Position numbers and translations under genes: made by a program | Notes under the pieces: generated by a model | The model's input: only the letters and a program-made list of their open reading frames with translations | What the model was told of the DNA's origin: nothing | The model's database searches: none | NCBI GenBank assembly: GCA_963704725.1 | Contig: OY969934.1 | Span: forward strand, 1,760,001 to 1,824,000 | Direction of reading: 5' to 3' | Length of the DNA: 64,000 nucleotides | DNA from: an uncultured Actinomycetes bacterium | Lineage (GTDB): Bacteria > Actinomycetota > UBA4738 > HRBIN12 | Shown: positions 47,064-54,060 of the stretch, piece by piece | Position numbering within the stretch: the stretch's first letter is position 1 | How the letters are laid out: the number at the start of each line of letters is the position of its first letter

Positions 47064-47067
<4 letters not shown>
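46240..47067 (-). CDS. nfo: Endonuclease IV
   Basis: IGAH, QLFISNPRAW, HAPYLVNIAS, VVHAGS, LDTCH, HLND...DRHE, ETP. Confidence 0.9.
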
Positions 47068-48944
<1,877 letters not shown>

Positions 48945-49052: not shown

Positions 49053-49766
49053 GTGGGCGTTCCCGAGGGCGCGGCCGGCGATCGGGACGCGTTCGAGCGG
49101 ATCGAGCGAGCCGTCGCGCAGGGCCGTACGGACCTCGGAGCGCTCGGCTTCTGGCGGCTCCTCGCCGAGGTCAAGGCCGACCCGGAGCGCGCCGCTCGGG
49201 CGGCCGAGGTCGCGGGCCGGATCGACCGCGCGGCGTTCGAGCGGGCGGTGTCGTGGCGGGTGCCGGTCTGGGTCGGCAACGGTCTCCTCGTCCTGGGGAC
49301 GCTGGCCGGCGCGGGTGCCGTGGCGCTGGCGTTCCGCACCACGTCGGAGCCGGTGGCGGGCCTCGCCCTGCTCGTCGCAGGAGGCGTGTGGTCGGTCACG
49401 TTCCACGACCTGGCCCACTGGCTGGTCGGGCGAGCGGCCGGGATCCGGTTCACCTCCTACTTCGTGGGATGGAGGCCGCCGCCGCCCCGGCCCGGACTGA
49501 AGACCGACTACGCCACGTACCTGCGCGTCTCGCCCACGGCCCGGGTGTGGATGCACGCCTCGGGCGCGATCGCCACCAAGGTGGCGCCGTTCATCGCCCT
49601 GGCGTTCGTCCCGGCCACGGACGCGCCGCCGTGGGCGGGGTGGGGGTTGCTCGGCCTGGGCATCGTGGAGCTCGCCACCGACGCGCTGTTCTCCGTGCGC
49701 TCCAGCGACTGGAAGAAGGTCCGGCGCGAGCTCCGCCTGGCGCGGCGTGTGGCCGGGCGTCGCTGA
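49053..49766 (+). CDS. Hypothetical membrane protein
   Basis: About four hydrophobic helices; HDLAH resembles a degenerate HExxH. Confidence 0.65.
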   Translation: MGVPEGAAGDRDAFERIERAVAQGRTDLGALGFWRLLAEVKADPERAARAAEVAGRIDRAAFERAVSWRVPVWVGNGLLVLGTLAGAGAVALAFRTTSEPVAGLALLVAGGVWSVTFHDLAHWLVGRAAGIRFTSYFVGWRPPPPRPGLKTDYATYLRVSPTARVWMHASGAIATKVAPFIALAFVPATDAPPWAGWGLLGLGIVELATDALFSVRSSDWKKVRRELRLARRVAGRR

Positions 49767-49796
49767 CGGCGTTTGCGGTTATCCTGCGCCTCGGCA

Positions 49797-49912
49797 TCAC
49801 CGGGGAGCTCGGGCGACCGGGCTGAGAGGCGGGTTGGGTTCGGGGCCACAAGGCCCGGGAATCGGCGCCCGCGACCCGACGAACCTGAACCGGGTAACGC
49901 CGGCGGAGGGAG
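49797..49912 (+). ncRNA. TPP (thiamine pyrophosphate) riboswitch
   Basis: GGGGAGC...GCTGAGAG...GACCC...GAACCTGAACCGGGTAACGCCGGCGGAGGGAG directly upstream of thiE. Confidence 0.93.
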
Positions 49913-49915
49913 ACG

Positions 49916-50557
49916 ATGGCGACCTTCGACCACGGCTCGTTGCGGCTCTGCGTCGTGACCTCGAGCGGCCTCGTGCCCGGGCGGGATCACCGCGACGTGG
50001 CGCTCGCGGCGCTCGAGGGCGGTGCCACGTCGATCCAGCTCCGGGCCCCGGAGCTCGACGACGATGCGCTCCGGCCGCTCGCGGCGGAGCTGGCGGAGCG
50101 CTGCGCTGGCGCCGGGGTCCTGTTCGTGGTGAACGACCGGGTGGAGGTGGCGGCGGCCGTCGGCGCCGGCGCACACGTGGGACAGGGCGACGAGCCCGGA
50201 GGCGCGCGGGCCGCGATCGGCGAGGCCTCGGTGCTCGGCATCAGCGTGGCGACCGTGGAGGAGGCCCTGTGGGCCGCGGCGGCGGGGGCCGACTACCTCG
50301 GTGTGACGGTGTGGGCGACGCGCACGAAGCCGGAGGCCACGCCGCAAGGCATCCACGGGCTCCGGGCCGTCGTCGACGCCACCCCCTTGCCGGTGATGGC
50401 CATCGGCGGGATCGACGCGCTGAACGCGCGCGAGGTGATCGAGGCTGGCGCAAGCGGCGTCGCCGTGATCTCGGCGGTCGGCGCGGCCGCCGATCCGGTC
50501 GGCGCCACCCGGGAGCTGATGGAGGCGGTGCGCGGCGCGCGGATGGAGGAGCGATGA
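49916..50557 (+). CDS. thiE: Thiamine-phosphate synthase
   Basis: IQLR, VVNDRV, HVGQGD, LGIS, GADYLG, T.TKP, AIGGI, GVAVISAV. Confidence 0.92.
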   Translation: MATFDHGSLRLCVVTSSGLVPGRDHRDVALAALEGGATSIQLRAPELDDDALRPLAAELAERCAGAGVLFVVNDRVEVAAAVGAGAHVGQGDEPGGARAAIGEASVLGISVATVEEALWAAAAGADYLGVTVWATRTKPEATPQGIHGLRAVVDATPLPVMAIGGIDALNAREVIEAGASGVAVISAVGAAADPVGATRELMEAVRGARMEER

Positions 50558-51627
50558 CGGAGCAGCGGACGGGCAAGGCCACGGCGGAGATGTTCGAGCG
50601 GGTGATCCTGCGCCGGCTGGGGGCGAGGGACCCCGACGTCCTGGTCGGACCGCGCCACGGCGTGGACGTGGGGGTCGTTCGGGTCGCGGACGGCGTGGCG
50701 ATGGCGCTGACGACAGACCCCGTGTTCGTCGTGCCGGCGTACGGGTGGGAGCGCGCCGCGTGGTTCGCCGTGCACATCCTGGCCTCGGACGCCGCCACGA
50801 GCGGCCTGCCGCTGCGATGGATGGCCGTCGACCTGAACCTGCCTCCGGAGATCACCGACGACGAGCTCACGTCGCTGTGGGACGCGTTCCACCGGGCGTG
50901 CGAGGGGATCGGGGTCGCCGTGGTGACCGGGCACACCGCTCGGTACGACGGCTGCGCCTGGCCCATGGTCGGCGGCGCGACGTGCATCGCGTCCGGGCCG
51001 CAGGACCGCTTCGTCACCCCCGAGATGGCCTCGGTGGGCGACCGCGTCATCGTGACCAAGGGCGCGGCGATCGAGGCCACGGCGCTGTTCGCCGCCACGT
51101 TCCCGGACCGCCTCGCCCGCGGCGTCGGCGACGACGTCGTGAAGGCCGCGGACGCGCTGTTCGAGCAGATGACGGTCGTGCCCGAGGCGACGGTGGCTCG
51201 GGAGTTCGGCCTCCGAGGCGACGGCGTGACGTCGATGCACGACGCCACGGAGGGGGGAGTGCTCGGCGGTCTGGCCGAGGTGGCGGCGGCCTCGGGGGTG
51301 GGCATGCGGGTCGACCTGGCCCGCGTGCCGGTCCGCCCGGAGGTCAAGGCGGTCTGCGACCACACGGGCATGGACCCCTACGCGTCGATCTCCGAGGGGA
51401 CCCTGATCGCGACCGTGGTGCCGCAGCGCGCCGAGGCCTTCCTGTCCGCGCTGGCCGCCGCGGGGATCGACGCCGCCGACGTGGGACTCGTGACCGAGGC
51501 CGCGTCCGGCCGTGTGCTCGTCACCGAGGAGGGCGAGCGCCCCCTCGAGCATCCGGGTCTGGACCCGTTCTGGGGCGCGTTCGGCCGGTGGGCCGAGGAG
51601 GCCGCCGGGATCGCCGCGGCCGGCTGA
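50554..51627 (+). CDS. AIR synthase (PurM/HypE/ThiL-fold) family protein
   Basis: GP..GVD.GV, TTDP, SDAATSG, TGHT, GDRVIVTKG, MHDATEGG, ISEGTL. Confidence 0.85.
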   Translation: MTEQRTGKATAEMFERVILRRLGARDPDVLVGPRHGVDVGVVRVADGVAMALTTDPVFVVPAYGWERAAWFAVHILASDAATSGLPLRWMAVDLNLPPEITDDELTSLWDAFHRACEGIGVAVVTGHTARYDGCAWPMVGGATCIASGPQDRFVTPEMASVGDRVIVTKGAAIEATALFAATFPDRLARGVGDDVVKAADALFEQMTVVPEATVAREFGLRGDGVTSMHDATEGGVLGGLAEVAAASGVGMRVDLARVPVRPEVKAVCDHTGMDPYASISEGTLIATVVPQRAEAFLSALAAAGIDAADVGLVTEAASGRVLVTEEGERPLEHPGLDPFWGAFGRWAEEAAGIAAAG

Positions 51628-52273: not shown

Positions 52274-53155
52274 GTGGACGTGGTGACGGTGGGGGACGTG
52301 ATGCTCGACGTGCGCGTGCAGGCCGAGGCGCTCGAGGAGGGCGGCGACGTGCACGGGCGGGTCCTGGTGCGCCCGGGCGGGAGCTCCTCGAACGCCGCGG
52401 TCTGGGCGGCGCACGCCGGGGCCCGGGCCCGGGTCCACGGGCGGGTGGGGGCCGACACGGCCGGGGCCCTGATCCGCGACGAGCTGATCCACCGCGGCGT
52501 CGAGCCGGCCCTGGTCGTCGACCGGGATGCGGACACCGGCACGATGCTCGTCGTGCACGAGCCCGGGGAGCGCTCCATGGTGGCCGACCGCGGCGCGAAC
52601 GGCCGGCTCGGGCCCCGCGACCTGCCCGAGCGGTTGGAGGCCGCCGCGGTCCTCGTCTCCGGCTACCTGCTCCTGTACGAGCCGACGTTCGCCGCCGCCA
52701 GGGCCGCGCTCGAGCGGGCCTCGGCCCGCTTCCTCGCCGTCGACGCCGCGTCGTGGCCGATGCTCCGCGACTTCGGTGTCGATCGGTTCTTCGACGTGAC
52801 GGCCGCGGCCAACACGATCTTCCTGAACGAGCGGGAGGCCGAGATCCTCACGGGCCGCCGAGGGGAGGACGCGGCGGACGCCCTGTCGGACCGGTTCCGG
52901 GTCGTCTGCGTCAAGCTCGGGGAGGCCGGCGCGGTGATGTCCTGGGAGGGTCTCGTGATCCGCTTCGGGGGCACCACGATCCGCGAGGTCGACCCCACGG
53001 GCGCGGGGGACGCGTTCGACGGCGTGCTGCTGGCGCAGCTCGCGGCGGGTCGCTCGCCGGGCGACGCGCTGCACGCGGCGTGCCGGGCGGGGGCGGTCGT
53101 CGCGTCCAGCTACGAGACGTGGCCGGAACGCCGGTCCGAGGTCGCGCCGGGATGA
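52274..53155 (+). CDS. PfkB family kinase (probable pseudouridine kinase)
   Basis: PGGSSSNAA, GRVGAD, NEREA, DPTGAGDAF; coupled to psuG. Confidence 0.85.
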   Translation: MDVVTVGDVMLDVRVQAEALEEGGDVHGRVLVRPGGSSSNAAVWAAHAGARARVHGRVGADTAGALIRDELIHRGVEPALVVDRDADTGTMLVVHEPGERSMVADRGANGRLGPRDLPERLEAAAVLVSGYLLLYEPTFAAARAALERASARFLAVDAASWPMLRDFGVDRFFDVTAAANTIFLNEREAEILTGRRGEDAADALSDRFRVVCVKLGEAGAVMSWEGLVIRFGGTTIREVDPTGAGDAFDGVLLAQLAAGRSPGDALHAACRAGAVVASSYETWPERRSEVAPG

Positions 53156-54060
53156 CCGTCTCGCCGTCCGAGGAGGTCGAAGGGGCGCTTCGGGGCGACG
53201 GCGCGGTCGTCGCGCTCGAGACGAGCGTGGTCGCGCAGGGCCTGCCCCCGCCGCGCAACCTCGAGTGCGTGGAGCGCATGTCGGTCGCCGTCCGAGCGGC
53301 CGGTGCCGTCCCGGCCTGGATCGGGATCGTGGACGGCCGGGTCCGGGTCGGGCTCTCCGAGGCCGAGCTCCGGGCGTTCGCCGAGCCGGGAGCCGCGGCG
53401 AAGGTGGCCCGGCGTGACGTGCCGTTCGCCGTGGCGGGGGGCGGCCTCGGCGCGACCACGGTGTCCACGACGATCTGGGCGGCGAGCAGGATCGGGATCA
53501 TGGTCGCCGCGACCGGGGGGATCGGCGGCGTGCATCCGGGGACCGGCGACGTCTCGGCCGATCTCGTCGAGCTCTCTCGGACCCCGATCGTGCTCGTGTG
53601 CTCGGGGCCGAAGTCGATCGTCGACCCGGTGGCCACGGCCGAGCGCCTCGAGGAGCTCGGCGTCGCCGTCGTCGGCTACCGATGCGACCGGCTCCCGTTC
53701 TTCGTCGCGCTCGATGCCGGGGTCGAGCTCGACCAGCGTGTCGACGACCCCGCGTCAGCAGCCCGGCTCGCGGCCGCCCTGCGTGCGACGGGGGCGCCGG
53801 CGGGGATCGTGATCGCCAACCCGGTCCCCGACAGGGTGGCGATGGACGGCGCCGAGGTGGCGCGGGCGGTGCGCGAGTGCGAGGAGGCCGCGACTCGGGA
53901 CGGCGTGCGAGGCAAGGCCGTGACCCCGTTCCTGCTCTCGTGCCTCGCCGAGCGGACCGGCGGCCGGAGCCTCGAGGCGAACCTTGCGCTGCTCGAGTCG
54001 AACGCTCGGCTGGCCGGGGAGATGGCTAGCGCAGCCAGGTCTTCGCGATCGCCTTCGTGA
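53152..54060 (+). CDS. psuG: Pseudouridine-5'-phosphate glycosidase
   Basis: VALETSVVAQGLP.PRN, ATTVS, ATGGIGGVH, DVSADL.EL, GKAVTPFLL, SLEAN. Confidence 0.92.
   Translation: MTVSPSEEVEGALRGDGAVVALETSVVAQGLPPPRNLECVERMSVAVRAAGAVPAWIGIVDGRVRVGLSEAELRAFAEPGAAAKVARRDVPFAVAGGGLGATTVSTTIWAASRIGIMVAATGGIGGVHPGTGDVSADLVELSRTPIVLVCSGPKSIVDPVATAERLEELGVAVVGYRCDRLPFFVALDAGVELDQRVDDPASAARLAAALRATGAPAGIVIANPVPDRVAMDGAEVARAVRECEEAATRDGVRGKAVTPFLLSCLAERTGGRSLEANLALLESNARLAGEMASAARSSRSPS

Follow-up and report, generated by a model that had tools for sequence, protein, structure and literature searches.

In thiamine salvage, thiazole phosphate is supplied to the thiamine-phosphate synthase ThiE by the ATP-dependent kinase ThiM, a protein of the ribokinase fold (PF02110) whose gene takes its place by thiE and thiD behind a thiamine pyrophosphate (TPP) riboswitch. 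Precursor kinase and synthase may also be joined in one bifunctional protein, as in yeast THI6 (ThiE-ThiM) and archaeal ThiDN (ThiD-ThiN). The PurM superfamily is represented in the pathway by ThiL, the chemistry of which is a phosphate-to-diphosphate transfer; HypE, of the same superfamily, activates an amide oxygen, and the cysteine of its C-terminal PR[IV]C motif is HypE's own substrate, bearing the carbamoyl/cyano group. The present work concerns a gene pair in a 64,000-nucleotide stretch of DNA (the window), which spans positions 1,760,001-1,824,000 of the single-contig, 3.45 Mb genome, estimated to be 95% complete, of an uncultured bacterium whose closest relatives are metagenome-assembled genomes of uncultured soil Actinomycetota. 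Behind a TPP riboswitch, thiE here overlaps a gene of PurM/HypE fold from the aminoimidazole ribonucleotide (AIR) synthase family, termed the AIRS-like gene below.

It is highly probable that this gene belongs to a new family of thiamine-pathway enzymes, and probable, at a lower level of confidence, that it acts in salvage of the thiazole branch. With moderate confidence, the pair would be a TPP-repressed two-gene salvage cassette, the enzyme being a non-orthologous kinase of hydroxyethylthiazole (HET) or carboxy-HET, or a near equivalent that activates thiazole for salvage, with a substrate predicted from gene content and genomic context and most of that confidence falling to plain HET. Such an enzyme would work like ThiM without belonging to its family: the predicted job, the operon position and the manner in which ThiG and Thi4 are complemented are alike, whereas the AIRS-like protein has the PurM/AIRS fold, is accompanied by its own synthase and co-occurs with ThiM in three settings discussed below.

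A TPP riboswitch and two overlapping genes

The TPP riboswitch aptamer (THI element) is observed at 49791-49929 on the forward strand, where it matches RF00059 (model positions 1-105) at 44.3 bits (E 2e-7). The score falls below the gathering score of 54.3 bits because of a 33-nucleotide insertion in P3; the default Rfam scan of the whole window returned no match, while in a permissive scan of 49500-50100 the TPP riboswitch was the sole family matched, over the full model length, and a whole-genome scan recovered it at the same place (E 2.7e-7). The core of the aptamer is intact (CUGAGA, ACCUGA and CGGAGGGA) and the P1-P5 architecture is present. Read against the covariance-model alignment, the Shine-Dalgarno-like GGAGGGAG (49905-49912, +) falls within the conserved CG.AGGGA core, three nucleotides 5' of the thiE ATG (49916-49918), so that the 3' part of the aptamer takes in both the ribosome-binding site and the start codon of thiE. 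This placement argues for a translational OFF switch that has no expression platform apart from the aptamer. The original prediction of a TPP riboswitch whose 3' end covers the ribosome-binding site is thus borne out, for an element that scores below threshold and is kept in relatives. The minimum-free-energy fold of the leader (z-score -0.77) did not reproduce the aptamer, and the covariance-model alignment was used instead; a consensus scan for promoters and terminators found nothing, as is expected for high-GC DNA.

The first gene, thiE (49916-50557, +), codes for a thiamine-phosphate synthase of 213 residues, scoring 165 bits against PF02581 (cut-off 27) and 148.4 bits against TIGR00693 (cut-off 145.1). 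The AIRS-like gene (50554-51627, +; 357 residues) shares an ATGA with it, as had been claimed, its ATG occupying 50554-50556 and the thiE TGA 50555-50557. The 3' neighbour of the AIRS-like gene is a convergent gene for a GNAT acetyltransferase, and the operon therefore consists of two genes.

The AIRS-like protein matches both PF00586 (43.6 bits) and PF02769 (91 bits) above cut-off. Its best NCBIfam match is ThiL (TIGR01379), at 93.2 bits against a cut-off of 184.15, and it also stays below the cut-offs of HypE (TIGR02124, 82.7 bits against 251.6) and SelD (TIGR00476, 56.9 bits against 125); a search with PF02110, the family of ThiM, gave no match to the protein. The gene is not ThiL, HypE or SelD, and canonical copies of all three are present elsewhere in the genome, namely a ThiL scoring 303.5 bits, a HypE ending in QLPRIC and a SelD with a C-G-C-K loop. 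The protein is no plain ThiL orthologue, and the earlier remark that its motifs are unlike those of canonical ThiL stands. By profile, the closest solved structures are HypE (118 bits), SelD (76) and ThiL (62). The AlphaFold model, with a predicted local distance difference test score of 95.3, has the PurM fold, and its top Foldseek matches are HypE (template-modelling score, TM, 0.74-0.78), ThiL (TM 0.68-0.79), SelD and PurM.

The motifs of the protein comprise an N-terminal GK, TTDP, ASD, GHTG.Y, MHDATEGG and a C-terminal DP[FY]W, and those singled out by the original prediction (TTDP, SDAATSG, TGHT, MHDATEGG) are all present in it. Superfamily, fold and pathway are common to it and ThiL, as would be phosphoryl transfer from ATP to an acceptor related to thiamine. 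An alignment to the genome's own paralogues places D38, D55, D79, D230 and E233 opposite acidic residues conserved in ThiL, which we take to be the Mg-ATP ligands of that enzyme; the AIRS-like protein is predicted, with its model in view, to be probably an active ATP-using enzyme. It differs from ThiL in having GHT for GGDT, HDATEGG for D.SDG and a DPFW ending for WDHF. His127 replaces an Asp of ThiL and of HypE (that of GDTK), and SelD likewise has His at this place (GGHS). With HypE the protein shares the N-terminal G-K and the DAT.GG motif, yet its C-terminus, ...DPFWGAFGRWAEEAAGIAAAG, lacks the PR[IV]C cysteine, as had been noted at the outset. With SelD it shares GGH(S/T) for GGD and a conserved Lys in the N-terminal segment, although its GK segment is devoid of the Cys or Sec found in the Cys/Sec-x-x-Lys loop of SelD.

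The family and its ties to thiamine genes

An exhaustive search of 1.84 billion representatives gave 391 clusters (50% identity) at E below 1e-30, a count which may take in a sister group as well. Among 60 full-length members, G7-K8, D38, D55, D79, G126-H127-T128, H229-D230 and E233 are invariant; the same columns are invariant in a 12-sequence set, and the AIRS-like protein has all of them together with the C-terminal D.[FY]W. In a 92-row tree it falls within a 66-row clade that carries GHTG.Y and the C-terminal D.[FY]W. This GHTG.Y / DP[FY]W family is widespread in bacteria and archaea and is unnamed, the source annotations of relatives reading only 'AIR synthase family protein', 'hydrogenase maturation factor' or 'HypE'. 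In full-text literature no link of the family to thiamine was found, and it goes unmentioned in the parts covered of PMC6593275, PMC11223231, PMC545781 and PMC3766115; the gene lists for the TPP regulon and the thiamine subsystem that supplement PMC3766115 and PMC6593275 may include the family under a different name.

The sister group is a clade of 23 rows (P0218-P0270 and others), in which GGHTE replaces GHTG.Y and the C-terminal motif is mostly absent; weak matches in two genomes without thiE, thiD and thiL (G030 and G089) may belong to it. A language-model search also hints at clusters in Thermoplasmatota and Bacteroidota, as a lead only.

Direct physical ties to thiamine-phosphate synthase are observed in several forms. 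Three fusions with ThiN (PF10120) occur among the representatives, one of the order ThiN-AIRS (P0154, a cluster of 8 members) and two of the order AIRS-ThiN (P0135 with 2 members and P0195 with 4), and AIRS-ThiN proteins are found in two Actinomycetota genomes (G101, 528 residues; G230, 526 residues). The ThiN fusions are placed at at least three separate points of the family tree. They resemble THI6 and ThiDN in that a precursor kinase would be fused to the synthase, but the kinase domain is here of the PurM superfamily, and a fusion alone does not settle which precursor is served. A search for longer fusions produced a singleton, P0272, read as AIRS-ThiD with garbled ThiE-like ends, which speaks at most for adjacency of the genes.

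In 79 of 80 loci of close relatives (76-87% identity) thiE lies directly upstream, the remaining locus being without flank, and these 80 loci contain no other thiamine gene within 6 kb. A more distant set comprised 80 metagenome loci whose identity to the G101 fusion is 37-62%; their genes were assigned with local hidden Markov models. ThiN occurs as a fusion partner or adjacent gene in 32 of these loci and ThiE as an adjacent gene in 7, and two more have a synthase close by. No synthase was seen in the other 39, but in 27 of them one flank is shorter than 1 kb. When 131 immediate neighbours of the metagenome members were tallied by Pfam family, ThiN came up 15 times, Rrf2 11 times, and TMP-TENI and Thiamine_BP 5 times each.

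Some of these neighbours may be recorded in their own right. The Rrf2 genes are typically divergent, and cysteine desulfurase (3), NifU (2) and tRNA methyltransferase/ThiI-like genes (2) were also seen; loci of the Rrf2 type (L167, L169, L170, L171, L180, L190, L193, L197, L207 and others) have no thiamine neighbour and may be one lineage. Small PF01910 Thiamine_BP (YkoF-like) genes adjoin the family member in L213 (7550-9008) and in four other metagenome loci.

The synthase of the cassette is itself distinctive. Gene content, taken up below, was profiled in 47 Actinomycetota genomes; 24 of these, out of a 301-genome sample of the phylum, carry the AIRS-like gene (the carriers). Cassette ThiEs form their own clade (13 rows; Shimodaira-Hasegawa-like approximate likelihood ratio test, SH-aLRT, 100), separate from that of canonical actinobacterial ThiEs (15 rows; 98); five genomes hold one ThiE in each clade, and G094 is the sole carrier without an adjacent ThiE. 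Q41, R43, D74 and K138 of the cassette ThiE are invariant, and are presumably its binders of hydroxymethylpyrimidine (HMP) diphosphate (HMP-PP) and thiazole phosphate.

Regulation by TPP extends well beyond the window. Within the bacterial family to which the source genome belongs (the window's family), a TPP riboswitch match lies directly upstream of thiE in 10 of 12 carriers, the orthologous sites in the nine genomes besides the source genome scoring 48-62.5 bits (four above the Rfam cut-off), and a regular expression for the riboswitch motif matches 68 of the 76 close-relative loci with enough flank. At G130:C35:15016-16790 (L136, 6017-7791) the riboswitch follows thiE and extends to the first base of the AIRS-like gene, which is therefore, rather than thiE, the gene directly regulated there. 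The 80 metagenome loci were pre-screened with a regular expression, and the resulting 11 candidates and three others were scanned with Rfam; riboswitches above cut-off (55.6-77.3 bits) were found in 10 of these 14, upstream of the gene or its operon. Eleven long metagenome loci without a synthase neighbour yielded a riboswitch above cut-off in one, L213, where the order is riboswitch, Thiamine_BP, AIRS-like gene. Together with the window, the 11 riboswitch-bearing metagenome loci sort into about five groups that share less than 50% identity with one another. Two further RNA matches were recorded, a TwoAYGGAY RNA between thiF and thiE (L151 11854-12010, -; 53.9 bits) and a fluoride riboswitch just downstream of a family member (L209 2032-2095, +; 43.4 bits).

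The original prediction had placed the gene in an ATP-dependent step of thiamine precursor salvage and had expected homologues linked to thiamine genes and to TPP riboswitches. Both links were found, and the proposed role in salvage gains support, at the level of sequence and context, from the ThiN fusions, the adjacent synthases and the riboswitches of distant members.

Gene content, the step served and competing explanations

In the source genome, thiD (343 bits) adjoins thiL at 2.338 Mb, 0.5 Mb from the cassette. The claim that thiD, thiM and thiG are absent is thus correct for the operon and the window but fails genome-wide for thiD; thiC, thiG, Thi4 and thiM were not found in the genome, the sole PF02110 match of which (26 bits) is a YjeF protein, and TenA and ThiT (PF09515) were likewise not found in it. 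Its only other TPP riboswitch (G000:C1:1256394-1256507, L007; 56.6 bits) precedes a gene for an NCS1 permease (PF02133), through which HMP or some other precursor of thiamine is likely to be taken up.

The pattern observed across the 47 genomes bears most directly on the step that is served. ThiE is present in 40 of them, among which are all 24 carriers, ThiG in 20, true ThiM in five and Thi4 in two. Every one of the 16 ThiE-positive genomes without ThiG, Thi4 and ThiM has the AIRS-like gene, and conversely all 16 ThiE-positive non-carriers have ThiG, Thi4 or ThiM (14 of 14 when the unpublished genomes G001 and G088 are left out); eight carriers additionally have ThiG or ThiM. ThiL is found in 24/24 carriers (three partial, at contig ends), ThiD in 22/24 and ThiC in 3/24. 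In the window's family, the non-carriers G116, G207, G219 and G298 are also without thiE and thiD, thiL being kept in G116 and G219, and G143 has thiG, thiE, thiD and thiL with the AIRS-like gene absent. Metagenome operons complete the picture: the orders AIRS-thiE-thiD(-tenA) or AIRS-thiD-thiE occur in L149, L172, L211, L214, L216 and L220, none with thiM, and L150 has thiE-AIRS-ThiDN, again without thiM. The AIRS-like gene occupies in these operons the usual place of thiM, and the proteins of L211, L214, L216 and L220 are 52-59% identical to that of the window. Gene content and operon position together fit a supplier of thiazole phosphate.

Of the kinases originally put forward, for thiazole, HMP or thiamine monophosphate (TMP), it is thus the first that gene content would favour; the presence of ThiL in all carriers speaks against a TMP kinase, and an HMP or HMP phosphate (HMP-P) kinase would fit poorly with the distribution of ThiD, treated below. 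The expected anticorrelation with thiM, thiL and thiD was likewise found only in part, as complementarity with ThiG, Thi4 and ThiM, whereas thiL and thiD co-occur with the gene.

The scheme favoured here would operate as follows. Abundant TPP would bind the aptamer and so conceal the thiE ribosome-binding site and AUG, and the AIRS-like gene, coupled via the ATGA, would fall silent too; under TPP scarcity both proteins would be made. With ATP as phosphate donor, the AIRS-like enzyme would then phosphorylate a thiazole alcohol obtained by scavenging, either HET or a close relative such as carboxy-HET, doing the job of ThiM by an unrelated fold and handing the thiazole phosphate to its own ThiE. 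HMP would probably be imported via the NCS1 permease and converted by ThiD to HMP-PP, ThiE would couple both halves to TMP, and the canonical ThiL would complete TPP. The translational mode and the phosphoryl-transfer chemistry are conjectural parts of this scheme, and the substrate is the most conjectural of all. A complex prediction for the AIRS-like enzyme with its ThiE scored 0.00 and is counted on neither side.

Several observations weigh against a HET kinase. The known HET transporter, ThiW (PF09512), was not found in the source genome, and to our knowledge no member of the PurM superfamily phosphorylates an alcohol. No TPP riboswitch was found beside the cassette in 13 of the 24 carrier genomes (E <= 0.001), and among the 38 metagenome loci flanked by 1 kb or more of sequence on each side, 12 are without a thiamine neighbour. 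The complementing genomes are 12/16 from one family, so that the independent lineages number about four, and G051, G176 and G230 are fragmented assemblies. The gene keeps its own synthase beside a canonical ThiE in G059, G201, G202, G225, G237 and G258, and a private synthase in such company hints that the product, or its handling, is not ordinary. ThiM and the AIRS-like gene occur together in G101, in one operon in L148 (riboswitch-thiD-thiE-thiM-thiL-tenA-AIRS~ThiN) and on one contig in L151; in such settings a plain duplicate of ThiM would not be expected. In L151 the AIRS-like gene moreover heads a de novo operon, riboswitch-AIRS-thiS-thiG-thiH-thiF, which is followed by thiE-thiC-thiD-NCS1-thiM. 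These three cases of co-occurrence, taken with the private synthase, keep a substrate other than plain HET in consideration.

The explanation that survives best beside the HET kinase is accordingly one in which plain HET is not the substrate and the enzyme activates some different compound related to thiamine, in a new route of salvage or repair and not as a replacement for ThiM. This is possible, although considered unlikely. The candidates would be carboxy-thiazole (cHET) or a breakdown product of thiazole or thiamine that is damaged, ring-opened or modified in another way, activated possibly at a carbonyl oxygen in the PurM/HypE manner to give a product that needs a dedicated ThiE or ThiN partner. 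The dedicated synthase lineage that accompanies the gene even beside a canonical ThiE, the recurrent ThiN fusions, and the presence of the gene beside ThiM, ThiD and ThiL in the L148 operon, beside ThiM in G101 and beside a full de novo set in L151 would all suit such a role, as would HypE being the closest solved relative. The cassette ThiE, however, retains Q41, R43, D74 and K138 and therefore looks like an ordinary synthase, the 80 close loci hold no conserved extra processing gene, and 16 genomes have no candidate source of thiazole other than this gene, a pattern of which a plain HET kinase is the simplest account. In a related and tentative form, given slightly less credence still, the enzyme and its private synthase (ThiE2/ThiN) would constitute an unrecognised two-enzyme route for a non-canonical thiazole precursor, such as carboxy-thiazole from the environment or a damaged or ring-opened thiazole. 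If true, this would mean an ATP activation of the PurM/HypE type, of which ThiM and the canonical ThiE are incapable, and it would explain both the persistence of the pair beside complete canonical pathways and the repeated fusions.

It is improbable that the gene codes for a non-orthologous ThiD, an HMP-P (or HMP) kinase which, on the model of the archaeal ThiD-ThiN fusions, would feed HMP-PP to the attached or adjacent synthase. This was raised by G101 and G230, which have AIRS-ThiN, thiC, thiE and thiL but no ThiD-family protein, and phosphate-to-diphosphate transfer is indeed what the paralogue ThiL performs. ThiD is nevertheless present in 22/24 carriers, thiD shares the operon in L148, L149, L150, L172, L211, L214, L216 and L220, and G143 and four relatives of the same order manage with ThiD alone. 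The HMP-P kinase is rejected above all on the evidence of f18, the low-GC actinobacterial family in which ThiD is missing whether the gene is present or not: no PF08543 match at E <= 1e-10 was found in 23 of the 24 f18 genomes examined, the exception, G301, having a 48.5-bit match over about half of the model that is not read as ThiD, while ThiE is present in 15 of the 24 and AIRS-ThiN in only 2 of 58 f18 genomes. The HMP-P kinase of f18 is not the AIRS-like gene. The 15 ThiE-positive, ThiD-less genomes of f18 are G101, G230, G324, G325, G286, G326, G087, G073, G181, G297, G327, G043, G275, G129 and G322, and in G101 and G230 thiC lies within a thiE-thiL operon.

A second, divergent TMP kinase acting right after the synthase is very improbable. 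ThiL is the best NCBIfam match of the protein and among the top fold matches of its model, and to fuse enzymes of successive steps would make sense; such an isozyme was rejected on its co-occurrence with canonical ThiL, which is present in every carrier and in the very operon of L148. It would leave the 16 ThiE-positive genomes without a thiazole source, and within the window's family the gene is lost together with thiE and thiD and thiL is kept. A HypE-like maturation factor that merely happens to lie behind thiE, as the automatic annotations and the closest solved structure would have it, deserves next to no credence and is already contradicted by the missing PRIC tail, the score far below the HypE cut-off, the true HypE elsewhere in the genome and the pervasive links to thiamine.

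Surroundings of the operon and wider meaning

A gene at 49053-49766 (+) codes for a predicted membrane protein of 237 residues with an HDLAHW motif and no Pfam match; it stops 25 nucleotides before the riboswitch and is thus outside its control. At 52274-54060 (+) lies a PfkB-family kinase gene followed by an overlapping Indigoidine_A (PsuG-like) gene, the usual pair of pseudouridine kinase and glycosidase, unrelated to the thiamine operon. The translation of 47064-48860 (-), in a reading of the open reading frame list only, resembles a Ser/Thr protein kinase with repeated, extracellular, PASTA-like domains at the C-terminus.

Thiamine synthesis is usually regarded as solved, and the genes known so far are the basis on which vitamin B1 auxotrophy is predicted from genomes. 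If the family described here supplies thiazole phosphate, many soil Actinomycetota that are scored as having no thiazole route could build thiamine from scavenged HET and HMP, and models of vitamin exchange in soil communities would change with them. For the PurM superfamily, it would mean a new type of reaction.

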